A DNA stretch of 64,000 nucleotides from an uncultured Verrucomicrobiota bacterium (GCA_964402695.1 CAYODK010000006.1:2125-66124); one strand, 5' to 3'; counted from the stretch's first letter, positions 3,993 to 58,378 are shown. The notes: generated by a model not told the origin, from the letters alone. Made by a program: numbers and translations.

Positions 3993-5917
3993 CTGACGAG
4001 CGTCCTCGGCCTCTCGGCCTACTACCACGACTCTGCGGCATACCTCGTCGTCGATGGCGAGATCGTCGCCGCGACGCAGGAAGAGCGCTTCAGCCGCGTC
4101 AAACACGACCATCGCTTCCCGGCACACGCCGTCGCGTACTGCCTGAAGGAGGCGAGACTTCGCCCTGGCCGGCTCGACCTCGTCGGCTTCTACGACAAGC
4201 CTCTCGTGAAGTTCGAGCGGCTCCTGAAGACCTACCTCGACTACGGACCGCGCGGCTTTTCCTCCTTCGTCAGGGCGATGCCGCTCTGGATGAAGGAGAA
4301 GCTCTGGCTGCCGGATCTCGTTCCGCAGGAGATCGCCCTGGCGTACGGCGCGACGGACGAGCGGGAAGCGAAGAAGGCAGCCCGGAACTACCCGTGGAAG
4401 GTCTCCTTCGGAGACCATCACGAAAGCCATGCCGCCTCGGCGTTCTACCCGTCCCCCTTCGAGGAGGCGGCCATCGTGACGATGGACGGCGTCGGCGAGT
4501 GGGCCACCTCGTCCATCGGCGTCGGCCGCGGATCTGACCTCACCCTCCTCGAGGAGCTGCGCTTCCCGGACAGTCTCGGCCTGCTCTACAGCGCGTTCAC
4601 CTATTACGCAGGTCTCAAGGTCAACAGCGGCGAGTACAAGGTTATGGGGCTCGCGCCCTACGGTGAGCCGAAGTACGTCGGCCTCATCCGGGAAGAGCTC
4701 CTTGACGTCGCGGACGACGGCTCCGTGAAGCTGAACCAGGAGTACTTCGGCTACGCCGACGGTCTCCGGATGACGAACACCGCCTTCGAGCGGCTCTTCG
4801 GGGGGCCGGCGCGCGAGCCGGAAACGAAGCTGACGCAGAAGGAGCTTGATCTGGCGCGCTCGATCCAGGACGTGACCGAGGAGGTCATGGTCCGGATGGC
4901 CCGATTCGCGCACCGGAAGACCGGTCTCCGCAAGCTCTGTATGGCGGGAGGTGTCGCGCTCAACTGTGTCGGAAACGGCAAGATCCTTCGCGACGGCACG
5001 TTCACCGACATCTGGGTCCAGCCGGCTGCCGGCGACGCGGGGGGCGCCGTGGGCATCGCCCTCGCGCTCTGGCACCGCTCTGCCTCGGGAAGCCGCGGAC
5101 GAGCCCTGAGCGGGCTGGGACCTGGGAATCGGCCTCCGCGGCCGACGGAAGGCTTCCGAAGTACGCCGACGGCATGCGGGGCGCCTCTCTCGGCCCGCGG
5201 CACACCGAGAAGGAGATCGAGGCCTTCCTGAAGGGCCGGAACCTCCCCTACCGGCGAGTGCCGCGGGAGGAGCTGGCCTGTCACGTCGCAGGCCTTCTCG
5301 CGGCAGAGAAGGTCGTCGGCCTGCACCAGGGCCGCATGGAGTTCGGTCCGCGGGCCCTCGGCGGCCGAAGCATCCTCGGAGACGCCCGGTCTCCGCGAAT
5401 GCAGGCCGTCATGAACCTGAAGGTCAAGTTCCGCGAGAGCTTCGGCCCGTTCGCCCCGACGGTGATGCGTGAGCACGTCGCCGACTGGTTCGAGCTGGAT
5501 GTCGAGAGTCCCTAAATGCTCCTCGTGGCCGGCATCGCGCGGTCCCGCCGAAGGGAGATGACGCCGGAGGAGGACGCGCTCTGGGGCATCGAGAAGCTCA
5601 ACGTCGTGCGGAGCGAGGTTCCTGCCGTGACGCACGTCGACTACTCCGCGCGAGTCCAAACGGTGCGGCGGGACGTGAACCCGCTCTACTGGGACATCCT
5701 CGAGGCCTTTCGGCGGGAGACCGGGTGCCCCGTGATCGTGAACACGAGCTTCAACGTGCGGGGAGAGCCGATCGTCTGCACCCCGGAAGACAGCTGGCGC
5801 TGCTTCATGCGCACCCGGATGGACGCGCTCGTCCTCGAGAACTACGTCCTCGACAAGGAAGCGCAAACCGAGTACGCCGAGACGGAGGACTGGGCGCGGA
5901 CGTTCAAGCTCGATTGA
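3993..5917 (+). pseudogene. Carbamoyltransferase (NodU/CmcH family) pseudogene
   Basis: The conserved N-terminus begins at CTG (LTSVLGLSAYYHDSAA) with no in-frame ATG, GTG or TTG. There is a -1 frameshift near 5080 and an in-frame TAA at 5513-5515, where the intact paralog (32839-34599) has Phe. The three pieces at 3993-5100, 5174-5515 and 5516-5917 align collinearly to the paralog. Confidence 0.75.
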
Positions 5918-32783: not shown

Positions 32784-32838
32784 GCATCGTTTGGTGCGAG
32801 GAGTGCGTGGATGGGCGAACGTCCATCCCGGAGATTGA

Positions 32839-34599
32839 ATGAGCGAAGTTATCCTCGGTCTGAACGCCTTCCACGGCGACTCGGCGGCCTGCCTCGTCGT
32901 GGACGGCAATCTCGTCGCCGCGGCGGAGGAGGAGCGGTTCCGCCGACTGAAGCACTGGGCGGGGTTCCCGTCGGAGGCGGCGAAGTACTGCCTGTCGGCT
33001 GCGGGATTGACGTTGGCCGACGTGGACCACGTCGCCGTGAACCGCGACCCGAGCGCGAACCTTCTCTCGAAGGTGCTCTTCTCGCTGTCGAAGCGGCCGA
33101 GCCTCGAGGCGATCAAGGGGCGCCTCTCCAACGCCTCGAAGGTAAGGGACATCGGGGCGCTGCTTCGGGAGCAGGTGGGCGACGGGCGGCCGGCGCGGTT
33201 CAAGGTGCACAACGTGGAGCACCACCGGGCGCACATGGCGTCGTCGTTCTACGTCTCGCCGTTCGAGACGGCGGCCGTCGTCTCGGTGGACGGCTTCGGC
33301 GACTTCGTGAGCGGGATGTGGGGCTCGGGGAAGGGGACGTCGATCTCGATGGACGACGAGGTCACCTTCCCGCACTCGCTCGGGCTCTTCTACCTCGCGA
33401 TGACGCAGTACCTCGGCTTCCCCTACTACGGCGACGAGTACAAGGTGATGGGCCTCGCGCCGTACGGGCAGCCGGAGCTGATGGAGGAGATGCGGACAAT
33501 CGTCCGGCTGAAGGCCGACGGGAAGTACGAGCTGGACCTTGACTGCTTCCTCCACCACTCGGAGGGGGTGTCGATGGTGTGGGACGACGGGATGCCCACC
33601 ATCGGGACGGTCTTCTCCGACGAGCTGCCGAAGCGGCTCGGGCCGGCGCGGGGTAAGGACGAGCCGATCACCGACAGGCACAAGGCGATCGCCGCCTCGA
33701 TGCAGGCGATGTACGAGGAGGCGTTCTTCCACGTCCTCGCGCACGTGGGGAAGAAGACCGGGGAGAAGAACCTCGCCCTCGCCGGCGGCTGCGCGATGAA
33801 CTCCGTCGCGAACGGCAAGGTCTTCGAGCGGTCGGACTTCCGCGAGATGTGGATCCAGTCGGCCGCGGGGGACGCGGGCGGGGCCATCGGGGCGGCGTTC
33901 CACGTCCAGCACGCCGAGCTGGGGCGGCCGCGGGGCTTCGTGATGGAGCACGCCTACCTCGGGCCGGAGTTCCCCGCGAGCGAGCTGAAGGCGCTCGTCG
34001 AGGCGAAGAGGGACGAGCTGGAGGCCGCCGGGTGCGTGGTGGAGGAGCCGGCCGACGAGGCGGCCCTCTGCAGGAGGACGGCCGGGGCCGTGGCCGAGGG
34101 GAAGGTCGTGGGCTGGTTCCAGGGGCGGATGGAGTGGGGGCCGAGAGCCCTCGGGAACCGCTCCATCGTCTGCGACCCGCGGCGGGCCGACATGAAGGCG
34201 ATCCTGAACGCGAAGATCAAGCGGCGGGAGTCGTTCCGGCCGTTCGCCCCGTCCATCGCCCGCGAGGCGACGGGGGCGTGGTTCGAGACGGACTACGACG
34301 TGCCGTTCATGCTGCAGGTCTACCAGATCCGCCCCGATAAGCGGGCCGTCATTCCGGCCGTGACGCACGTGAACGGCTCGGGTCGCCTGCAGACGGTGAC
34401 GGAGGCCCAGAATCCCCGCTACTACCGGCTCATCCGGGCGTTCGAGGCCGAGACCGGGGTGCCGCTCGTGCTGAATACGTCGTTCAACGAGAACGAACCG
34501 GTGGTCTGCCGGCCGGAGGAGGCGATGGACTGCTTCCTGAGGACGAAGATGGACGTGCTGGTGCTGGGGGACGTCGTCGTCGAGAGGGTGGAGCGGTGA
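32839..34599 (+). CDS. Carbamoyltransferase (NodU/CmcH family), intact
   Basis: 586 aa, full-length: MSEVILGLNAFHGDSAA...GRMEWGPRALGNRSI...NTSFNENEPVV. Confidence 0.9.
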   Translation: MSEVILGLNAFHGDSAACLVVDGNLVAAAEEERFRRLKHWAGFPSEAAKYCLSAAGLTLADVDHVAVNRDPSANLLSKVLFSLSKRPSLEAIKGRLSNASKVRDIGALLREQVGDGRPARFKVHNVEHHRAHMASSFYVSPFETAAVVSVDGFGDFVSGMWGSGKGTSISMDDEVTFPHSLGLFYLAMTQYLGFPYYGDEYKVMGLAPYGQPELMEEMRTIVRLKADGKYELDLDCFLHHSEGVSMVWDDGMPTIGTVFSDELPKRLGPARGKDEPITDRHKAIAASMQAMYEEAFFHVLAHVGKKTGEKNLALAGGCAMNSVANGKVFERSDFREMWIQSAAGDAGGAIGAAFHVQHAELGRPRGFVMEHAYLGPEFPASELKALVEAKRDELEAAGCVVEEPADEAALCRRTAGAVAEGKVVGWFQGRMEWGPRALGNRSIVCDPRRADMKAILNAKIKRRESFRPFAPSIAREATGAWFETDYDVPFMLQVYQIRPDKRAVIPAVTHVNGSGRLQTVTEAQNPRYYRLIRAFEAETGVPLVLNTSFNENEPVVCRPEEAMDCFLRTKMDVLVLGDVVVERVER

Positions 34600-34609
34600 G
34601 GGTGCAGGC
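34469..34609. repeat. Direct repeat copy A (3' end of the carbamoyltransferase gene, the stop codon and 10 nt)
   Basis: Near-identical to 35563-35702 (5 substitutions plus a 2-bp indel). Confidence 0.8.
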
Positions 34610-34635
34610 CCTCACGACGTAGGCCGCGAAGGGAT

Positions 34636-34890
34636 TCAGGCTGGCTTGGTCCGACTACGGCGGGGAGCGGGAACAGCGGACCGTGCCGCTGCTACGAGGG
34701 TTCGAAGGGCCTCGTTTACGGACTCGGAGGTCGGGAAGACCTTCGAAAGGTCGCTGTCGAGGAGCACGATGCTCGCGCTGGCCCGGGCACGCTGAAGGTA
34801 CTTGCCTCGGACGCCGCCTTTCAGCTGCGAGAAGTCGTACTCGGGACGCAGGTCGTCGGAAGAACGCTTACGAGCCTTCTGTGTAGCCAT
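34636..34890 (-). CDS. brnA: BrnA-like antitoxin (COG3514/DUF4415-type, RHH-like C-terminus)
   Basis: EYDFSQLKGGVRGKY motif, downstream of and overlapping brnT. The start is taken at the internal Met (MATQKARK). Confidence 0.55.
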   Translation of the reverse strand: MATQKARKRSSDDLRPEYDFSQLKGGVRGKYLQRARASASIVLLDSDLSKVFPTSESVNEALRTLVAAARSAVPAPRRSRTKPA

Positions 34891-35140
34891 GTTTTTCTCG
34901 TTTCGTGGCCCGACGGGCGCTGATGATGCGGACCTCGGCTCCGACATCTGCATGGGCAACGACCAGTACGCGGCCACGAGCTGACATGCCGAATGTGAGG
35001 AAGCGCTGCTCGAGAACAGAGTGGTCAGGGTCTGTGAAGGTCAGGTGGAGTGGGTCGTGGAAGACGGTTGCAGCCTCCTGAAAGCCGACACGGTGCTTCC
35101 GAAGGTTCGAGGCGGCCTTTCGCGGATCCCACTGATACAC
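34868..35140 (-). CDS. brnT: BrnT toxin (DUF497, RelE-fold ribonuclease)
   Basis: MYQWDPRKAASNLRKHRVGFQEAATVF...RIISARRATKREK. Confidence 0.8.
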   Translation of the reverse strand: MYQWDPRKAASNLRKHRVGFQEAATVFHDPLHLTFTDPDHSVLEQRFLTFGMSARGRVLVVAHADVGAEVRIISARRATKREKHGYTEGS

Positions 35141-35217
35141 GACCCCAGTCTAGCGGATGGGGAGCCGGCCTGAGGTTGAGTAGTCTGCCGGCCGAACGAG
35201 GCGACCGACTGCCCCTT

Positions 35218-35277
35218 AAAGACGAAGGTGGATGTGCTGGTGCCAGGAGACGTCTTCGTGGACAGGACGGGGCGATA
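35218..35277. repeat. Direct repeat copy B (partial, about 60 bp, of the carbamoyltransferase 3' end)
   Basis: Encodes in frame KTKVDVLVPGDVFVDRTGR-stop. Closer to copy C than to copy A. Confidence 0.65.
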
Positions 35278-35291
35278 GAATCGCCGAAGGA

Positions 35292-35534
35292 ATGAATCGT
35301 AGCGGCGTCTCGGGCATGTGGGGCATCTGCGTCGCGAACGGCGGATACGCGGCGTCGCTGGAGCCGCACAAGGTCTATCGGCTTCTGCCGACTCCGGCCG
35401 GCACGCCGGAGTCGCTGGTGCGCGTCGTGGACGAGTCGGGCGAGGATTACCTGTACCCCCGCTCGCTCTTCCTGCCGCTCGTGCTTCCCGCACGAGTGCG
35501 ACGCGCCCTGGAGCATCGATCGGCTGACTCGTAG
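35292..35534 (+). CDS. Hypothetical small protein (cassette cargo)
   Basis: 80-aa ORF with codon usage like the host's. No recognisable family. Confidence 0.3.
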   Translation: MNRSGVSGMWGICVANGGYAASLEPHKVYRLLPTPAGTPESLVRVVDESGEDYLYPRSLFLPLVLPARVRRALEHRSADS

Positions 35535-35562
35535 CTGTCGCCGGGGGGCGGGAGTTTCAATG

Positions 35563-35702
35563 GTGCTGAACACGTCGTATCGAGAACGAGCCGGTGGTCT
35601 GCCGGCCCGAGGAGGCGATGGACTGCTTCCTGAGGACGAAGATGGACGTGCTGGTGCTGGGGGACGTCTTCGTGGAGAGGGCCGAGCGGTGAGCGTGCAG
35701 GC
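35563..35702. repeat. Direct repeat copy C (displaced ancestral 3' end of the carbamoyltransferase, frame broken by a 2-bp indel)
   Basis: Its stop TGA overlaps the GTG start of the OMP gene (GTGA), as expected for the pre-insertion arrangement. Confidence 0.8.
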
Positions 35703-37059
35703 GCGCTTGCCGAGGCTCGTCGCGGCGGCGCTCGCCGCGCTCGGGCTCCTCTTCGCGGCGGAGGCGGCGCGAGGGCAGGAGGGTGGAACGGGCGGGCTGC
35801 GGCCGGCGGTGATGCAGGGAGCGACGGGCGGGACGGGGGGCGGGACGTTCGAGTCTTCCGTGACGCCGCTGCCGGAGCGGGAGTCGCTCGAGAGCGAGGC
35901 AGCCGACGCGAGGATTCGCCTCGGGCCGCTTCGGCTTCGCCCGACGCTTTCCATCGGGAACTTCGGCTACACGAACAACTTCTTCGGCGAGACGGACGAG
36001 GAGAGGGAGGGGGACTTCACTGCGACCGTGCAAGGGGGCGTCCGCGCGATCGTCCCGGTGGGGAGCCGGCTCTTCCTCAAGGGGAGCGTTCTCCCCACGT
36101 ACAGCTGGTACTCGAAGAACGCCGACCGGCGGCAGTTCGGCGGGACGTACGACGCGTCGGCGCTCTTCTACCTCTCGCGCTTCGCGCTCCAGGTGCAGGG
36201 GGCGAGCGGTGCCGAGAACGTGGACCTCAGCTCCGAGGTCGAGCAGCCGGTGGAGCAGAAAATCCTCTCGGGGGTCTTCCGCGGGCAATACGAGCTGGGG
36301 AGCCGGACGGCGATCGTCGGCGACCTGAGGCTCTCGCGGCGGCGGTACGGCGGCGCGGGGTTCGACGAGGAGGAGCTTTCGACGTTCCGGCGGCTCGACG
36401 GGACGGACACGATCTGGAGCGTCGGGGTGCGGCGAAAGGTCGGCGCTCGCCTGCAGGTTGGGGTGAGCTACGAGCGGGGCGACCTCTCCTTCGCGAACGA
36501 GGGGGAGCTGCGCGACGCACGGAGCACCGGCATCCTCGCCTCGGCGTTCCTCGACCGGAGCCGGCTCGACGTGAACGTCTACGCCGGCTACCGGAAGCTC
36601 GAGCCGAAGGCCGGCTCGTCGTTCGAGCCGTACGACGGCCCCTCCGGCGGGGCACAGGTGACGTACGCGGCCACGCGGCTCGTCTCCCTCGGCGCCTTCG
36701 CCCGCAGCTCGTTCGTCTCGTCGCTCTACGGCGAGAACGCGTTCTACGACGAACGGCGCGCGGGGGCGACGATCGGGATCGCCCCCCGATGGGCGTCGCT
36801 CATGGTCGCCTTCGAGGTGGGGTCGAACAAGTATCCCGACTTGACGGTCTTCGCCGACGGCACGTCCGCGAAGCGGAACGACGACGTGACGACGCTCCGG
36901 GGGCAGGTGACCACGCGCCTCGGGCGCCTCCTCAACCTCGGGGTCGACGTCTCGCAGAGCAAGTACGACTCGAACCTCCCCGGCCTCGACCGCTCCGTCT
37001 TCCGCATCGGGACGACGATCGGCCTCGGCCTCTCCGGGAGCATCGACATCATCAAGTGA
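35689..37059 (+). CDS. Putative outer-membrane beta-barrel protein of the polysaccharide export locus
   Basis: GTG start, signal peptide MSVQARLPRLVAAALAALGLLFAAEAARGQ, Gly/Thr-rich low-complexity segment, amphipathic beta-strand pattern. Confidence 0.55.
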   Translation: MSVQARLPRLVAAALAALGLLFAAEAARGQEGGTGGLRPAVMQGATGGTGGGTFESSVTPLPERESLESEAADARIRLGPLRLRPTLSIGNFGYTNNFFGETDEEREGDFTATVQGGVRAIVPVGSRLFLKGSVLPTYSWYSKNADRRQFGGTYDASALFYLSRFALQVQGASGAENVDLSSEVEQPVEQKILSGVFRGQYELGSRTAIVGDLRLSRRRYGGAGFDEEELSTFRRLDGTDTIWSVGVRRKVGARLQVGVSYERGDLSFANEGELRDARSTGILASAFLDRSRLDVNVYAGYRKLEPKAGSSFEPYDGPSGGAQVTYAATRLVSLGAFARSSFVSSLYGENAFYDERRAGATIGIAPRWASLMVAFEVGSNKYPDLTVFADGTSAKRNDDVTTLRGQVTTRLGRLLNLGVDVSQSKYDSNLPGLDRSVFRIGTTIGLGLSGSIDIIK

Positions 37060-37093: not shown

Positions 37094-37510
37094 TCAGCGC
37101 GAGATCCACTCCACGCGGACCTCGCCGGCCTTCTCGACAGCGCGGATCTCCGGATCCCCCGTGACGAGCGCGACGTCTTTCTCGCGGGCGACCTGCACGG
37201 CGAAGGCGTCGGCGAGCGCGATGGGGAAACGCGCCTCGAGCCGGGCGGCTTCGAGGACCCGCGGCCGGGTGGCATCCACGACCGAAACCGGGACGTCGCC
37301 GCGCAGGGCTCCCTTCCAGAAGTCGTTCGCCGCGTCGGCACCCAGGATGCGGTGCATCCGGTAGTAGACCTCGGCGAGGTTGACGACGGAGATCCAGCAC
37401 CGGGTGTCCGGCGCCGTCGAGGCGGCCGCGAGGTAGTCCTCGACGATCGGCGCTCCCTGCTCCCTCTGGAGCCACGAGAGAAGCGCGAAGGAGTCGAGGC
37501 AGACGCTCAC
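37094..37510 (-). CDS. vapC: PIN-domain toxin VapC
   Basis: The GTG start overlaps the vapB stop (GTGA). Acidic PIN residues are present. Confidence 0.8.
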   Translation of the reverse strand: MSVCLDSFALLSWLQREQGAPIVEDYLAAASTAPDTRCWISVVNLAEVYYRMHRILGADAANDFWKGALRGDVPVSVVDATRPRVLEAARLEARFPIALADAFAVQVAREKDVALVTGDPEIRAVEKAGEVRVEWISR

Positions 37511-37746
37511 CGCCTGGCCTCCTTGCGATGCTCCTTCCGGTGCTCCGCGAGGGCGTTGGACCCCGAGAGCGCCCCGGCCCACGCTCTCCAGGGGCGTCGG
37601 CCCGCACGGGTGCGAACCCGCGTGAGCACGATGGCGTCGGCCTTCGAGGCGACCTCGAGCTGCTCCCCTTCTCGCAGGCCGAGCTCCTTCCGGAGGTCGA
37701 GCGGAATGACGATCTGGCCTTTCGACGAAACCGTGACGGTGGGCAT
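37507..37746 (-). CDS. vapB: AbrB/MazE/SpoVT-type antitoxin VapB
   Basis: MPTVTVSSKGQIVIPLDLRKELGLREGEQLEV swapped-hairpin motif. Confidence 0.8.
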   Translation of the reverse strand: MPTVTVSSKGQIVIPLDLRKELGLREGEQLEVASKADAIVLTRVRTRAGRRPWRAWAGALSGSNALAEHRKEHRKEARR

Positions 37747-53220: not shown

Positions 53221-56200
53221 CGTCCGCTCCGGAGCCAGGCGGACCTAAGTCCGGCGAGGCGATGGACGCACCGCTTCAGGATGGGCGTTTCGAGAGCGTG
53301 GCGAATGGCGCGCTCGGAGGACGGAGCTGCCCTTCCGACTCGCGCCAGAAGGCGCTCTCCCAGGTAGGTTGCGGCCTCGAAGGACGGATGCCTCGGGAAG
53401 CGCCCGAGACCGCGCACCTCGACACACTCGACCGGGAAGAGGCTGACCCCGGCAACGGTTGCGGGCGGAGGTGCGAGAGGTCCTTGCCTCCGCCGGAAGA
53501 CGCCTCGGCGGGAGTCGTCGAGGACCTGCTGGAACAGCTTCACGTAAGCGTCGACCATGTTCTCGATCCGGAAGCTCCCGCTGAGAAGCCTCTCCTGTGC
53601 GCGCTGGGACATTCTGCTTCTCAGGTCGGCGTCGCCCGCGAGGCGCACGATCCGGTCGGCGAACTGGTCGATGTCCCCGACGGGAACGATGAAACCCTCC
53701 TCTCCGTCGCGGACGAGCTCGGGAATACCGCTCCGGATGGCCGAGACGACGGGTATGCAGCCCCGGCCCATGGCCTCCAGGAGGGCGTTCGGCAAACCCT
53801 CGAACGACGAGGTCATCAGGTACACGTCCTGGCTTTCGAGTACGCGGAGCGCATCTTCGTTCGACAGGACTCCGAGCATCCGAATGGCGCCGCGATCGGC
53901 GAGCTCTCGGGCAGCGCTGCGGAACGCGTCTTCGTCCGGCCCGGCTCCAATCACGGTCAGGACAGCGTCCACTCCCCGGTTCAGAACGGCGCGAACGATC
54001 TCCGGGAGGTCGAGGATGCGCTTCTGCCGGACGTTGAGGACGCCGTGATAGACGAGCCGGAGCTGTCCGCCCGCTTCGCGGGCGGGTTTCGGAGCTTCTC
54101 CGGGAAGGCAGATTCCGTACGGGATCGTGTGAAGACGCGCAGCGCACCCCGGGTCGATCCCCACGGCCTTCTCGGCGATCTCCTGACTCACGGCCACCAC
54201 CGCATCCCAGTACCTCCCTTGTCGGGCGAGGTGGTCGTAATGGAGGGGATCGTCCCCGTGGAGGATCCCCACTACCGAGACCCGTCGCGGCAATCGCGGG
54301 GCGACGCACGACTGCCGCCAGTCGTAGTTCGGAAGGTAGACGCACGGTGCGCTCTCCTCGAGGAGGCGCTGCATCGCGGCCCAGCGCTTCCCCCATCCGT
54401 CGGTCCGACCGACGGGCAGGTACCGGACAGGCAGATCCGGTGGAAGGGGCATGGGAGGGTCGGGAATCGAGATCAGGTCCGTCCGCTCCTCCGTGAGGAG
54501 GATCTCCGCCTCGGTCCCCTGTGCGCGAAGCCCTCGCACGAGATTCGCTGCGAAAACCGTCACCCCCGTGAGGGTCCAGTAGGGCAGCGCCACGACGACC
54601 CGAAAGTCACGGATCTCGGCGCGCCGGGCCGCCGTCACGGCGGCCTGCTGCACCTCCCGCGGCGTTGGGCTGCGCCGCATCTCGTCGAAGTCGATCCTGT
54701 CCCGGCGACTCGGGAAAGCGCCGAGCCCGGGGACGACGTGCGAGCACGGAATGGGGAAGATGCCGAGGCCGTCGATCTCCGGGGGGGGGGGAGAGATAGC
54801 TCCCGCAGCCCTGACGAAACGTCCCTCGCGAGCGTCTTCAGCGACCCGCTCGCACAGCTCGCCCCAGCGGCGGGACATCTCCTGGACGCTGTGCGGACCG
54901 CCGGCGACGATCTCGAAGGAGCGGCGGGCCATCCTCGACCGGAGGGCCGGATCGGAGGCGAGTTCCTGCAGCCGGCGCGCGAAATGGTCGAGGTCGCCGA
55001 TGGGTGCGGTGAAGCCGCTCTCACCGTCGCGAACGAGCTCCTGGAGCGCGCTTCGGGTCCGCGAGACGACGGGGACACAGCCCCGCCCCATCGCTTCGAG
55101 GAGAGCATTCGGCATTCCCTCGAACTCCGAGGTCATCAGGAAGGCGTCGTGCTCCTCGAGCATGCGCAGGACGCCTCGATTGGGGAGGACCCCCGCGAAC
55201 CGGACCCGTCCACGCTCCGCGTGGTGGTCCAGCAGGTCCCGCAGCTCGGGTTCCTGGCTTCCACCTCCCGCGAGGGTCAGCACGAACGGAACGCCAAGCG
55301 ACTCGAGACGGTCGAGAATCCCGACGAGGTCGAGGATCCGTTTCTGTCGCTGGTTCAGAAGGCCGTGGTAGACGATTCGGAGGGCGCCCCCGGGGTCCGT
55401 GGCGTGCTGCGGCAGGCTCTCCGGAACCTCGACGCCGATCGGGATCGTCAGGAGCCGAGGCCGGAAGGACGGGTCGATCGCCGCGGTCTGGTCCTCGACG
55501 GCACGGCTGACGGCGACGATGGCGTTCCAGCTTCGTCCGAGGCGTGCGACATGGTCGTAGTGCAGGGGGTCGTCGCTGTGGACGACGCCGGCGACGGCGA
55601 CACTCCCGCTGAGCAGGGGGGAGATGCAGGAGTGCCTCCAGTCCGCGTTCGGCACGTAAACGCAAGGCGAGCGCTCTTCCAGATAGCGAATCATGGCGCC
55701 CCAGTGCGCGCCCCAGCTCGCCTGGGGACTCACGGGAAGGTAGGAAACCGGGAGGTCGTCCGGGAGCGGGAGGCGTGGGTCCTCGACGCTCACGAGGTGC
55801 GTTCGCTCCTCCGTCAGCAGGAGCTCGGCGTCGAAGCCGATGCTCCGGAGGCCGCGGACGAGGTTCGCCGAGAAGATGTTGACTCCGTTCAGAGTCCAGT
55901 AGCTCGCAGCGACGACGACCCTTGGTCGCACGTTCTTCCTCCATGTCTCCCGAGTCAGATCGCTCGTCCGCGCTGGCCGGGAGTCCTTTCGCAATCCGAA
56001 ACGTCCCGCCCGGGTTCCGAGCGAGAGCGCATCCACGAAGAGCCTTGCGCATTCCGCAGCGCGGACTCGGATTTCGGAGTAGAAGAGAACGAGGTGGCCT
56101 GCCGCTACGAGGAGGTAGCTCGTGTCTCTCCAGGCGAGCGAGCCAAGGAGTACCAGCGACAGCCAGGCCTGGTAGAAGCCGGCCGGGAGCACGTAGGCCC

Positions 56201-57044
56201 CGTGCGAAGCCGGGGCCGGGTCTGGGCGCACGCCCCAGACTCTCCAGCGGACGGCGTCTACGCCCGCACTTACAGCAAGGGCTGCGAAAGGCGCGACACC
56301 TGGCGAACCCTGAGAGGCGAACCACGCGGCGAGGACGAGGGCTTCGGCCGGGAAGACGACGCGGTGGATGACTCGGCGAACTCGATCGGGCCGCTGTCCG
56401 GCAACGAAGGTCCGCACGCCGCCCGCCTTGTCCGCTTCCCGGTCCCAGAGCTGGTGGAGGAGGATGCCCCGGGTTCCAGTGAGGAAGGACCACGCGATTG
56501 CGAGTGCGGCCGGTACGCCGAGGCTGCCCTCGCCGAGAACCCACGACGCAGTCGCCGCCGGGAAGGTGTGGACGGCCAGCGAGTCCGCGAGTACCCCAAG
56601 GAGGGACCGTTCCTTCAGCCGGACGGGAGGGGCCGAATAGGCGCCCGCAAGGGCGAGATTCGCGATCACCAGCGCGACGCCCATGGACCCCGCGCCGGCC
56701 AGGAATACCGGCAGGACGCTCACCACCGCGAGGAACAGGAGGGCGCCGGCGACTGCTTCCCTGCGTACCGTCCGTATTCGGGTGGGCCGTCCGGCTCGCC
56801 GATCCGCATCCGAGTCGAAGAAGTCGTTCGCCAGATATCCGAAAGCGCCCAGCGCCGACGTCGAGATCAGGATCGCCAGAAGGCGGGGGCCCGAGGACGA
56901 AGACGGTGACCGGCAGACGAGCGCCTGCGCGTAGCCGACCGCGAGCGCCATCGGGACCTTCGACGAGAACCACTCGCCGGCCCGCACGCTCGCGACGACG
57001 GTCCGGACATCGAGAACGGCACGGCTGAGAGCACGTCGTTTCAC
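53217..57044 (-). CDS. Tri-domain fusion: UbiA-superfamily prenyltransferase-like membrane domain plus two tandem GT4 glycosyltransferase domains
   Basis: UbiA motifs NDFFDSDADRRAGRP and WDREADKAGGVRT in a roughly 330-aa TM domain. There are two roughly 400-aa GT-B repeats, each ending EGMPNALLEAMGRGC(V/I)PVVS. 1275 aa. Confidence 0.65.
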   Translation of the reverse strand: MKRRALSRAVLDVRTVVASVRAGEWFSSKVPMALAVGYAQALVCRSPSSSSGPRLLAILISTSALGAFGYLANDFFDSDADRRAGRPTRIRTVRREAVAGALLFLAVVSVLPVFLAGAGSMGVALVIANLALAGAYSAPPVRLKERSLLGVLADSLAVHTFPAATASWVLGEGSLGVPAALAIAWSFLTGTRGILLHQLWDREADKAGGVRTFVAGQRPDRVRRVIHRVVFPAEALVLAAWFASQGSPGVAPFAALAVSAGVDAVRWRVWGVRPDPAPASHGAYVLPAGFYQAWLSLVLLGSLAWRDTSYLLVAAGHLVLFYSEIRVRAAECARLFVDALSLGTRAGRFGLRKDSRPARTSDLTRETWRKNVRPRVVVAASYWTLNGVNIFSANLVRGLRSIGFDAELLLTEERTHLVSVEDPRLPLPDDLPVSYLPVSPQASWGAHWGAMIRYLEERSPCVYVPNADWRHSCISPLLSGSVAVAGVVHSDDPLHYDHVARLGRSWNAIVAVSRAVEDQTAAIDPSFRPRLLTIPIGVEVPESLPQHATDPGGALRIVYHGLLNQRQKRILDLVGILDRLESLGVPFVLTLAGGGSQEPELRDLLDHHAERGRVRFAGVLPNRGVLRMLEEHDAFLMTSEFEGMPNALLEAMGRGCVPVVSRTRSALQELVRDGESGFTAPIGDLDHFARRLQELASDPALRSRMARRSFEIVAGGPHSVQEMSRRWGELCERVAEDAREGRFVRAAGAISPPPPEIDGLGIFPIPCSHVVPGLGAFPSRRDRIDFDEMRRSPTPREVQQAAVTAARRAEIRDFRVVVALPYWTLTGVTVFAANLVRGLRAQGTEAEILLTEERTDLISIPDPPMPLPPDLPVRYLPVGRTDGWGKRWAAMQRLLEESAPCVYLPNYDWRQSCVAPRLPRRVSVVGILHGDDPLHYDHLARQGRYWDAVVAVSQEIAEKAVGIDPGCAARLHTIPYGICLPGEAPKPAREAGGQLRLVYHGVLNVRQKRILDLPEIVRAVLNRGVDAVLTVIGAGPDEDAFRSAARELADRGAIRMLGVLSNEDALRVLESQDVYLMTSSFEGLPNALLEAMGRGCIPVVSAIRSGIPELVRDGEEGFIVPVGDIDQFADRIVRLAGDADLRSRMSQRAQERLLSGSFRIENMVDAYVKLFQQVLDDSRRGVFRRRQGPLAPPPATVAGVSLFPVECVEVRGLGRFPRHPSFEAATYLGERLLARVGRAAPSSERAIRHALETPILKRCVHRLAGLRSAWLRSGR
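54781..54791. repeat. G11/C11 homopolymeric tract inside the UbiA-GT4-GT4 coding sequence
   Basis: 11 consecutive G on the + strand, encoding PPPP at the linker between the GT4 repeats. Confidence 0.9.
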
Positions 57045-58378
57045 GAAGGCGGGCCCGAACTGCTCCTTCGCCGAAAGCCGAGCCGCCCGAAGTACCGCCG
57101 CGCGTGTCCCGACAGGAGCGATCGGACCGGCGGGAGGTGGTCGAGCCAGGGAGGAGGAAGCCCGAGCGGGGAGCGGACGGTCCCGGGCGGCCGCCGGAAG
57201 GAACCCGTCGAAAGGTCGTGCCAGACCTGATCGAATAGCGCCGTGTAGGCGTCGACCATTCCATCGAGGTTGAATCTGTCGGCGACGGTGCGGTGAGCCG
57301 CCGCGCCCATCGCGGCTCGTCGAACCGGGTCGGACTGCAGGACTTCGAGCCGGGCAGCGAAGGTTCTCACGTCACCAACACGGACTCGGAAGCCGTTCTC
57401 GCCGTCGGCGACGAGCTCCGGGATGCCGCTTCTGATGTCGGAAACGACCGGCACGCAACCTCGGCTCATCGCCTCCAGGAGCGCGAGGGGCAGCCCTTCG
57501 AACTCGGACGCGAGGACGAAGGCGTCGGCCCGTTCGAGCTCGAGGAGGATGTCGTCGTTGGAGAGCGTGCCCAGGAGACTGGCCTGGCCACGACCGACGA
57601 GGTCTCCGAGGGCCCGTTCGAGATTCGTCCGATCCGCTCCGTTCCCCGCGATTCGCAGCTCGAAGGGGACGCCCTGGAGCGCCAGATGTCGAGCGATGGC
57701 GGCGACGTCGAGGACACGCTTCTGGTGCTGGACGATCCGGCCCGCGTAGACGATTCTGAGGGGGGCACCCGGGCGGGAGACGCGCTCGGGGAAGGCCTCC
57801 GGGCATGGAATCCCGTACGGGATCGTTCGCATCCGAGGGACCAGGCGGGGCGTCTGTTTCGCGATTGCCGCGGACACGGCGTCGCTGACCGCGACGATGC
57901 CGTTCCAGGAGGCGCCGAGTCTCGCAACGTGTTCGTAGTGGTCCGGGTCGTCGCTGTGGGCTATGCCGACGACGGCGACGGAATCCGGGAGGACCGGGCT
58001 GACCCCGGAATACGCGTAATCGTAGTTGGGGATGTAGACGCACGGCGAGAGCTCGGCAAGGTAGCGCCCGAGAGTGCTCCACCGCTCGTTCCATCGATGG
58101 TGAAGACGGACCGGGAGTCGATCGAAGCGGAGATCGGCAGGGAGGGGAATGGGGTTCGTCCGGCGTGTCGACGGCCTCGTGAACAACAGGCGGGCATCGA
58201 AACCGCGCGATCCCAGCGCACGCGCCATGTGGAACGAGAACGTGTCTACACCGCTCAGCTCCCCGGAAGTCAACCCGATCACGACCCGGTATTCCGGGCC
58301 GTCCTTACGGGCAGAGCCATTTCGCGGTTGGGCCGGTTCCGCGAATCGACGGTTCATGACGTCTGTCCCCATTATCAT
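57041..58378 (-). CDS. GT-B glycosyltransferase (GT4), third paralog of the tandem repeats in the upstream fusion
   Basis: Same subfamily signatures (EFEGLPLALLEAMSRGCVPVVSDIRSGIPELV). ATGA-coupled to the fusion gene. Confidence 0.8.
   Translation of the reverse strand: MIMGTDVMNRRFAEPAQPRNGSARKDGPEYRVVIGLTSGELSGVDTFSFHMARALGSRGFDARLLFTRPSTRRTNPIPLPADLRFDRLPVRLHHRWNERWSTLGRYLAELSPCVYIPNYDYAYSGVSPVLPDSVAVVGIAHSDDPDHYEHVARLGASWNGIVAVSDAVSAAIAKQTPRLVPRMRTIPYGIPCPEAFPERVSRPGAPLRIVYAGRIVQHQKRVLDVAAIARHLALQGVPFELRIAGNGADRTNLERALGDLVGRGQASLLGTLSNDDILLELERADAFVLASEFEGLPLALLEAMSRGCVPVVSDIRSGIPELVADGENGFRVRVGDVRTFAARLEVLQSDPVRRAAMGAAAHRTVADRFNLDGMVDAYTALFDQVWHDLSTGSFRRPPGTVRSPLGLPPPWLDHLPPVRSLLSGHARRYFGRLGFRRRSSSGPPS

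Follow-up and report, generated by a model that had tools for sequence, protein, structure and literature searches.

The stretch of DNA analysed here, 64 kb from an uncultured Verrucomicrobiota bacterium and called the window in its whole length (coordinates are counted from its first letter), is an exopolysaccharide locus, of which 37 open reading frames (ORFs) were scanned against Pfam. A gene for a NodU/CmcH-type carbamoyltransferase (CT) is followed there by a gene for an outer-membrane β-barrel porin (OMP), and the 3′ end of the CT gene is present in three copies, A, B, and C. The CT–OMP junction holds an insert of 953 bp (34610–35562), whose three small ORFs belong only to a brnT toxin unit and to an orphan small ORF (orf80). 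In our view, the locus probably arose when an insertion with long target duplication took place where two genes of the operon overlap. The positions of the features are listed in Table 1.

The evidence that carries this reading comes from relatives in which the junction is uninterrupted. A protein search with CT gave homologues of 80–96% on long contigs, and their contexts showed empty sites. Insert-free relatives, the existence of which had been predicted in an earlier note made from the window sequence, were thus found: in seven contigs (L088, L089, L090, L091, L092, L093, and L094), the CT stop and the OMP start have 4 nt in common. The amino acid identities of CT are 96% in L088 and L090, 95% in L094, and 89% in L091–L093, and the L089 contig belongs to an NCBI assembly. 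The same overlap is found in the window, where copy C keeps the GTGA stop/start arrangement (35689–35692) that the earlier note had rightly regarded as ancestral. In a multiple alignment, the single-copy junction of the empty-site genomes is matched by both A and C over their full extent; the duplicated target begins approximately 160 nt ahead of the CT stop and ends 10 nt past it. Since both repeats align to the single copy of the empty site, they bear the signature of target duplication, and a replacement gene end carried by the element, as supposed earlier, is not needed. The L001 contig, which has the only distant OMP homologue near a CT gene, was rejected as an empty site, since two genes lie in between. 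Exact-sequence look-ups of the window CT and BrnT gave no match, nor did metagenome scans with the OMP protein and with a 28-mer of the frameshifted C copy. A genome scan with CT gave no relative above 72% amino acid identity, and the same scan yielded the analogous loci described later.

The triplication itself, on which the earlier note was built, stands well above chance in both tblastn and blastn comparisons. When the CT C-terminus was compared with all fetched loci (1.17 Mb) by tblastn, the E values were 1.7e-18 for C and 2.6e-11 for B. Copies A and C are 92% identical over 142 nt (blastn), with 12 differences in the 142 aligned columns. Copy A consists of the last 46 codons of CT, the stop codon, and 10 nt, and the homology of C reaches leftward to approximately 35547; in L083, the corresponding limit is approximately 155–160 nt upstream of the stop. 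Because the repeat includes the 10 nt past the stop, it holds the first 14 nt of the OMP ORF, which starts with the GTG at 35689. Copy C has lost 2 nt (TTCAAC to TATC) and with them the CT frame, and this deletion is common to the C-type copies of L082, L083, L084, L085, and L086. An ATG at 35560 opens, by way of the deletion, a frame through C into OMP, giving a 499-aa ORF (35560–37059) that, if used, would place 43 extra residues before the predicted signal peptide of OMP.

The mosaic composition of C should be noted. Its left part has the old 2-nt deletion, its right part has the window-specific changes of A (GGGGACGTC and GAGCGGTGA), and A and C share an identical core of 60 nt (permutation P = 0.012). 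Since the right part of C shares changes with A while the left part keeps the old deletion, the mosaic and the core are read from the alignment as gene conversion between the repeats. Copy B also exists as noted earlier, though it extends over 35180–35279 (approximately 98 nt) instead of 35218–35277. It lies between the brnT unit and orf80 and terminates in a TAG of its own. The supposed closeness of B to C is not found, as the identities are 73.6–79% to C and 72.7–78% to A; GTCTTCGTGGA, common to B and C, is no sign of such closeness because it is the ancestral state, present at the empty sites too. In the alignment, no stretch that is identical between B and either A or C exceeds 14 nt. Copy B differs in composition (the G+C content at third codon positions, GC3, is approximately 0.81 as counted from the sequence) and has an allele-like C-terminus. 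It is kept at 93–96% in L082 and L086, and its last 12 nt are all that survives in L084 and L085. The limits of the repeats relative to the CT stop are −98 to 0 for B, approximately −160 to +10 for A and C, and up to +30 for copy c1 of L084.

The three copies are not an assembly artefact, as two independent assemblies of related populations agree with the window. L082 (Logan SRR22554216) is 96.5% identical to 34633–35610 and spans the 84-aa ORF beside brnT, BrnT, B, orf80, and the start of C. L086 (JGI 3300048579) is 94.3% identical to 32837–35607 and spans CT, the A junction, the brnT unit, B, orf80, and the start of C. The chance that the repeats come from mis-joined reads of strain variants is negligible, even though the window and its relatives were all assembled from metagenomes and the short contigs L082 and L086 break inside the repeats: the A, B, and C junctions are reproduced at 3.5–6% divergence by assemblies from other samples and assemblers, the orf80–C–OMP junction is found in more distant relatives too, and the copies differ by substitutions and indels.

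These observations can be arranged in the following model. In the ancestral state, which still exists in the empty-site relatives, CT is followed directly by OMP, with the stop and start overlapping as GTGA. Because CT and OMP overlap, the junction has no neutral insertion point, and only insertions that duplicate the junction would leave both genes working, since CT needs its C-terminus and OMP needs the ribosome site and the leader ORF inside CT. Copy A would preserve the C-terminus of CT, and copy C would preserve the ribosome-binding site and the leader ORF of OMP for translational coupling. Direct repeats normally delete the DNA between them, yet the loss of a toxin–antitoxin cargo would be toxic; such cargo would therefore persist, as its loss would kill the cell and addiction would resist loop-out. 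The repeats would then supply the homology through which gene conversion and loop-out occur and strains exchange cargo, and the CT end would be a passive duplicated target without a recombinase site. Candidates for the duplication step are staggered breaks with fill-in and end joining, a single crossover of a circularised fragment, and illegitimate joining beside a homologous anchor.

The sequences upstream of OMP are consistent with the role given to C. Copy C carries a Shine–Dalgarno-like GAGAGGG for OMP, and all the OMP-proximal copies (window, L083, L084, and L085) have GAGAGG(G/A) 9–15 nt upstream of the OMP start. A mini-ORF in the CT frame, starting with ATG or GTG and ending at the TGA that overlaps OMP, is found in the same four sequences. 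Copies c2 of L084 and L085 have an internal deletion of approximately 85 nt, with a 16-codon mini-ORF still kept. The kept mini-ORF and the GAGAGG(G/A) motif fit translational coupling of OMP to the upstream frame. The spacer between OMP and the Wza-like gene, 1.4 kb downstream, is truly intergenic and takes toxin–antitoxin inserts without duplication; no flanking repeats were found around the VapBC insert downstream of OMP. This spacer is a second toxin–antitoxin hotspot. It contains VapBC in the window and L088–L090 (L088 9195–9847) and HicAB in L094 (9176–9579), and it is empty in L091–L093, with 20 nt (L091 7925–7947). The inserts are placed between the OMP stop and a conserved GGAAAGGTAGACTGA just upstream of the start codon of the Wza-like gene.

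Several points weigh against an insertion with target duplication as the whole account. The step that created the duplication is not readable from the sequence, and copy B is unexplained by a single event; B may have been left by an earlier event, or it may have come with orf80 as part of a foreign CT locus. The 60-nt identical core of A and C is also predicted by crossover-based integration. Empty and occupied lineages are interleaved by OMP similarity, so that some empty sites could be revertants and some occupied sites could have been gained by homologous exchange; the insert has probably spread by homologous recombination or been lost again through loop-out. The roles given to the leader ORF and to addiction are inferred; addiction would account for an apparent predominance of toxin–antitoxin pairs between such repeats. 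In the literature searched, no report was found of long target duplication around classical toxin–antitoxin pairs, the precedent being restriction–modification genes.

The cargo was examined for its relation to known modules. The earlier note had named a brnT/brnA pair, of which the toxin is solid (PF04365, E = 4e-28), whereas the 84-aa "BrnA" is a putative antitoxin by its position only. The latter has no match to PF14384, the BrnA ribbon-helix-helix family in Pfam, and its sole likeness to true BrnA is an EYDFS motif. Its ORF overlaps brnT by 23 nt and is intact and conserved in L082, L086, and L087. The BrnT homologues are 98% identical in L086 and 87% identical in an integron cassette of L087. 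At the DNA level, the brnT unit has its closest relative outside the lineage in L087, where it is one cassette of a classical integron array: L087 3597–4131 is 84.5% identical to window 35171–34638 over 535 nt. The 5′ limit of this homology is the L087 cassette edge, G|TTAGGC, where TCAGGC is found in the window, L082, and L086, and the other end is the antitoxin stop, where the attC site of L087 begins. The contig (GCA_009612875.1, WBZR01011531.1, 1–5418) has eight attC sites of 58–67 nt (GCCTAAC...GTTAGGC), and its cassettes hold two different BrnT pairs, a MazE–PemK pair, and several ORFs of no assigned function. No integrase is encoded on this 5.4-kb contig.

This relationship indicates that the brnT unit is of the integron-cassette type. 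A covariance model built from seven attC sites of L087 recovers eight sites in L087 and detects none in the 64-kb window. A 34-nt attC remnant at 34610–34643, next to copy A, was dropped as a candidate, since 42% of random window segments align equally well. No tyrosine recombinase was found among the 37 window ORFs scanned, nor were IntI or attI found in the window. The earlier description of the cassettes as integron-like is supported by the exchangeable cargo and the link to the L087 integron. Delivery of the brnT unit by an integrase acting in trans is plausible and would leave the duplication unexplained.

The second cargo ORF, predicted earlier as an 80-aa ORF, is real and belongs to a widespread family of approximately 75 aa with 571 matches and no Pfam domain. 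It has no match in Pfam, NCBIfam, PADLOC, or PHROGs, and the conserved start may be the ATG at 35316. Members of the family are usually the second gene of a pair, behind a gene for a 77-aa protein (orf77), and orf80 is an orphan in the window; the partner gene was found in L081, in L083, and beside P0002. Neither orf77 nor the BrnT partner has a PADLOC or PHROGs match. The structure model of orf80 (predicted local distance difference test score 84.5) is a small SH3-like barrel with a C-terminal helix, and its resemblance to PDB entries is weak (best match E = 0.025). The orf77–orf80 pair is a conserved two-gene module without family annotation (L081 5618–6083; L083 1–383; in the window, orf80 at 35292–35534), found in toxin–antitoxin-rich islands. 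The C-terminus of orf77 reads ...EIHWYEA.GVGRKE.KIKR, and orf80 has the invariant motif DESGEDYLYP. The pair may be an undescribed toxin–antitoxin-like pair.

The cargo at the junction differs between relatives. BrnT and its partner are found in the window, L082, and L086, and in their place L084 and L085 have ParE with an Unstab_antitox antitoxin. In L083, the C-terminus of orf77 lies directly upstream of orf80, followed by C and then OMP. The absence of a recombinase from the insert, pointed out earlier, was confirmed and extends to the 37 window ORFs scanned.

The CT gene itself is an outlier in the locus. Its GC3 is 0.96 versus approximately 0.82 in most neighbouring genes, and it is 93% identical at the nucleotide level to relatives whose flanking genes show 70–83%. 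Judging from these values, CT looks like a recently exchanged unit, an outlier of horizontal exchange. The block of high CT identity (32839–34606) runs from the start codon to a few bases past the stop, and the upstream neighbour varies between lineages. The names on the closest CT homologues in the protein search point to Thermoanaerobaculia, Acidobacteriota.

An arrangement of gene, new end, cargo, and old end is also what site-specific integration would leave, and the earlier note had proposed that small elements integrate into the CT 3′ end, each with a replacement end, by means of a tyrosine or serine recombinase encoded elsewhere. Two nested integrations would then have given rise to the three copies as attL, a hybrid att, and attR. 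The 60-nt identical A/C core flanked by differences, the left-hand 2-nt deletion in all C copies, as expected of an element-borne arm, and the variation of cargo between relatives agree with this proposal. We nevertheless regard it as very improbable, because no integrase or transposase is found in the insert or among the 37 ORFs scanned, the repeat limits are inconstant (as given above for B, for A and C, and for L084 c1), the identical stretches that link B to A or C do not exceed 14 nt, and other genomes use the ends of other genes, with 85–420 nt. Moreover, the repeat takes in the OMP start, so that it is the target junction itself. The insertion origin proposed earlier is borne out by the empty sites, whereas the variable limits and the use of other genes' ends speak against a dedicated att site in the CT 3′ end. 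Host recombination could alternatively move the cargo without any recombinase of its own. A RecA-dependent loop-out between A and C would give a circle containing the cargo and one CT end, and its re-entry by a single crossover at any conserved CT–OMP junction would regenerate the duplication. This cycle overlaps with an insertion by target duplication and would explain spread between lineages, not the first event. It accords with the interleaving of empty and occupied lineages, with orf80 and C being 85–89% identical between lineages whose adjacent OMP 5′ parts are approximately 72% identical, with the 93% identity of CT across 70–83% backgrounds, by which the address sequence is shared, and with the mosaic C, whose right part matches A. 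A comparable cycle of invasion, amplification, and release was proposed for repeat-flanked restriction–modification genes (PMC2853133). On the other hand, the OMP 5′ region may just evolve fast, 150 bp at approximately 90% identity is a poor RecA substrate, and an active toxin–antitoxin pair should select against loop-out. We therefore hold this cycle to be rather unlikely.

Two further explanations concern parts of the array. For the brnT step only, and compatibly with an insertion by target duplication, the unit could be an excised integron cassette placed by IntI in trans at a secondary attG-type site, the A–B seam, with its attC decayed. The 84.5% identity over the full length to one L087 attC-array cassette and the upstream limit of the homology at the cassette point favour this route, and there are documented cases of cassettes inserting away from integrons (Cury et al. 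2016, PMC4889954), including at attG sites, as far as Loot et al. (2024, Nat Microbiol) are cited in PMC12614218. No attC was detected in the window and no IntI among the 37 ORFs scanned, the 34-nt remnant is no better than random segments, the flanking bases match neither G|TT nor GNT, and integrase recombination makes no target duplications; the reverse direction, recruitment of a chromosomal unit into a cassette, is also possible. Taken together, this route is a serious possibility, though we incline against it. Copies B and C could instead be scars of serial CT allele replacement by homology-facilitated illegitimate recombination, in which a homologous crossover at one end of the incoming allele and an illegitimate join at its other end leave the old 3′ end behind and bring in the DNA downstream of the donor's CT. 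The exchange-outlier character of CT, with the identity block ending a few bases past the stop, fits such replacement, as do the composition and allele-like C-terminus of B and the CT fragments, from the 5′ or 3′ end, near intact CT genes in L025, L048, and L057. However, the empty-site relatives underwent the same CT exchange and show no scars, the 10 nt of OMP start in A fit a duplicated junction better than downstream DNA of a donor, and the 5′-end duplications of other genes around toxin–antitoxin cassettes (L054) are not accounted for. Serial replacement is accordingly unlikely.

An unbiased self-comparison of all the fetched loci showed that the architecture is not confined to the window; it is found in five further loci from other phyla (L057, L054, L008, L081, and L025). 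In L057 (Burkholderiales), 416 nt of a CT 3′ end are repeated at 88% identity around MqsR–MqsA and RelB. In L054 (Thiobacillus), three copies of the first approximately 150 nt of a glycosyltransferase family 2 (GT2) gene enclose a nucleotidyltransferase pair and an AbrB–PIN (VapBC) pair. In L008 (Thermodesulfobacteriota), 180-nt repeats with no assigned source gene enclose a sugar transferase, a DUF4258/MqsA-like pair, and a DUF2281/PIN pair. The metagenome contig L081 has 139 nt of a TEN_NHL-like gene repeated around a HigBA-like pair (Gp49 and a helix-turn-helix protein, according to precomputed Pfam tags), and L025 (Nitrospirae) has 85 nt of a CT 5′ end repeated around three biosynthetic genes. 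Because the repeat lengths vary and the targets are unrelated, no dedicated recombination site is indicated. The GT2 copies of L054 (12054–14433) begin at the start codon; this array is the closest structural twin of that in the window, but with a gene 5′ end. A separate case is L048 (7438–12875), where a 3.25-kb tandem duplication lies downstream of an intact CT gene, each unit consisting of a frameshifted CT 3′ fragment (aa 482–584) and a DUF2887/DUF4351 gene, which we take to be of a nuclease-like family.

The locus was compared with known systems. A new 3′ end for the target gene is also brought by some integrative elements, for example tRNA/tmRNA islands and e14 or phage 21 in icd, which have their own integrase beside the att site and cross over at a fixed core. 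The window resembles them in having a gene with a new end, cargo, and a displaced old end, with the target gene functional; it differs in having no integrase among the 37 ORFs scanned, variable limits, and a repeat reaching into the next gene. In homology-facilitated illegitimate recombination and Campbell-type integration, host recombination and short homology suffice, and Campbell integration duplicates the homologous stretch around the insert. These two processes are candidate mechanisms here, not families to which the locus could be assigned. The likeness to integron cassettes and clusters of attC sites lacking integrases (CALIN) lies in small promoter-poor units, often toxin–antitoxin pairs, that are moved by an integrase encoded elsewhere, and in the brnT unit, which has a close homologue as an attC-array cassette with homology from the cassette edge. 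In contrast to these systems, the window has no attC, no attI or IntI was found, and the repeats that bound the cargo derive from the end of a host gene instead of being attC hairpins. Integrase recombination also yields no target duplication, unlike the event seen here.

The closest precedent is insertion with long target duplication as described for restriction–modification genes (Nobusato et al. 2000, Gene 259:99; Furuta et al. 2010, NAR, PMC2853133), so that the "undescribed" system of the earlier note has a forerunner: long target duplication around addiction genes without mobility genes. In those cases, the repeats are variable (46–423 bp), no mobility genes are present, both repeats align to the empty site of a relative, the repeats often span a start or stop codon so that the target gene stays intact, and insertion into operon-like structures was noted (PMC2853133). 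Furuta et al. (2010) defined such cases by direct repeats of more than 30 bp, a single-copy empty site, no mobility gene, and an insert of less than 20 kb. Here, the A/C repeat of 142 nt at 92% is extendable to approximately 165 nt, the empty sites of L088–L094 are single-copy, and the insert of 953 bp is accompanied by no mobility gene among the ORFs scanned. The cargo, BrnT and its partner with orf80, is not a restriction–modification system. The repeats are 95–165 bp here and up to approximately 420 bp in L057. Unlike the restriction–modification cases, the window and its relatives have three stacked copies, turnover of cargo, and one unit of the integron-cassette type, and the cargo consists of type II toxin–antitoxin-type modules, mostly with RNase toxins, in place of restriction enzymes. 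The published idea for the mechanism is DNA breakage by the restriction enzyme (PMC2853133); it is no common cause, because most toxins here are RNases.

These comparisons indicate that the event is a variant of a known but obscure kind that recurs across phyla. They suggest that the mode of long target duplication extends from restriction–modification to toxin–antitoxin-type modules and is therefore independent of DNA cleavage by the cargo. They further suggest that overlapping gene junctions filter for duplicating insertions, and addiction may explain the survival of cargo between direct repeats. The mobility of chromosomal toxin–antitoxin modules is a standing question, since the modules carry no mobility genes, and the locus makes the question testable: it provides an unusually complete natural series, with empty sites, three cargos, a unit traceable to an integron, and a neighbouring spacer without duplication. 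A bolder conjecture, which we think unlikely, is that the gene-end duplications are working parts of a recombinase-free, homology-addressed mobility system for toxin–antitoxin and similar selfish cassettes. With equally little confidence, we suppose for such a system that the cargo and one circulating gene end, here that of CT, loop out and re-enter genomes carrying the gene by host recombination. Arrays would then grow by repetition, and integron cassettes would feed the pool. If true, homology-addressed mobility would be a general answer to how toxin–antitoxin modules free of mobility genes make their way into chromosomal operons. In annotation work, a short pseudogene of a gene end within a polysaccharide operon marks an insertion of this kind.

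Table 1. Features of the CT–OMP junction and its surroundings in the window.
Feature	Coordinates	Strand	Evidence
CT (NodU/CmcH-type), intact, 586 aa	32839–34599	+	Carbam_trans_N 4e-55, Carbam_trans_C 7.5e-71 (Pfam)
Copy A, functional CT 3′ end and 10 nt past the stop	34446–34609 (confident 34469–34609)	+	Alignment
Putative antitoxin partner of BrnT, 84 aa	34636–34890	−	Position; no family match
BrnT toxin (DUF497 ribonuclease family), 90 aa	34868–35140	−	PF04365, E = 4e-28, 98 bits
Span homologous to one L087 integron cassette	34638–35176	−	84.5% over 535 nt
Copy B, degenerate ~98-nt copy of the CT 3′ end	35180–35279	+	73–79% identity to A/C; own TAG
orf80, orphan small ORF	35292–35534	+	571 homologues; no family match
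Copy C, frameshifted CT 3′ remnant adjoining OMP	~35547–35702 (confident 35563–35702)	+	Alignment
OMP, outer-membrane β-barrel porin, GTG start	35689–37059	+	PF10082 BBP2_2, 1.6e-6
VapC PIN toxin and AbrB/MazE-type antitoxin, OMP–Wza spacer	37094–37746	−	PIN 3.4e-12, MazE_antitoxin 3e-10

Across the window, Pfam matches were obtained for 31 of the 37 ORFs scanned, and six had none. Four of the matched ORFs form two toxin–antitoxin pairs, and the others have glycosyltransferase, Wzy, CpsB, MBOAT, ABC-transporter, OmpA, and other non-mobility domains; the integrase and transposase families had zero matches among the 37. A second, distant CT paralogue (37–42% amino acid identity) at 4002–5857 is split over two frames (4002–5021 and 5174–5857) and is either a pseudogene or an assembly frameshift. 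A minus-strand gene for a 1384-aa multi-domain glycosyltransferase and its flank contain long diverged internal repeats (53659–58066; approximately 65% over 700–960 nt). An element of tandem heptads, CGTAGAACGTAGAACGTAGACCAGACCCCA, lies at 722–751, with the start of the first polysaccharide gene (ATG at 782) approximately 40 nt downstream, and occurs once in the window and not at all in shuffled sequences. The element recurs between the antitoxin gene and orf80 in L084 (906–937) and L085 (859–906), and it may be a promoter or operator of which a copy was placed there so that transcription resumes beyond the insert on the opposite strand.

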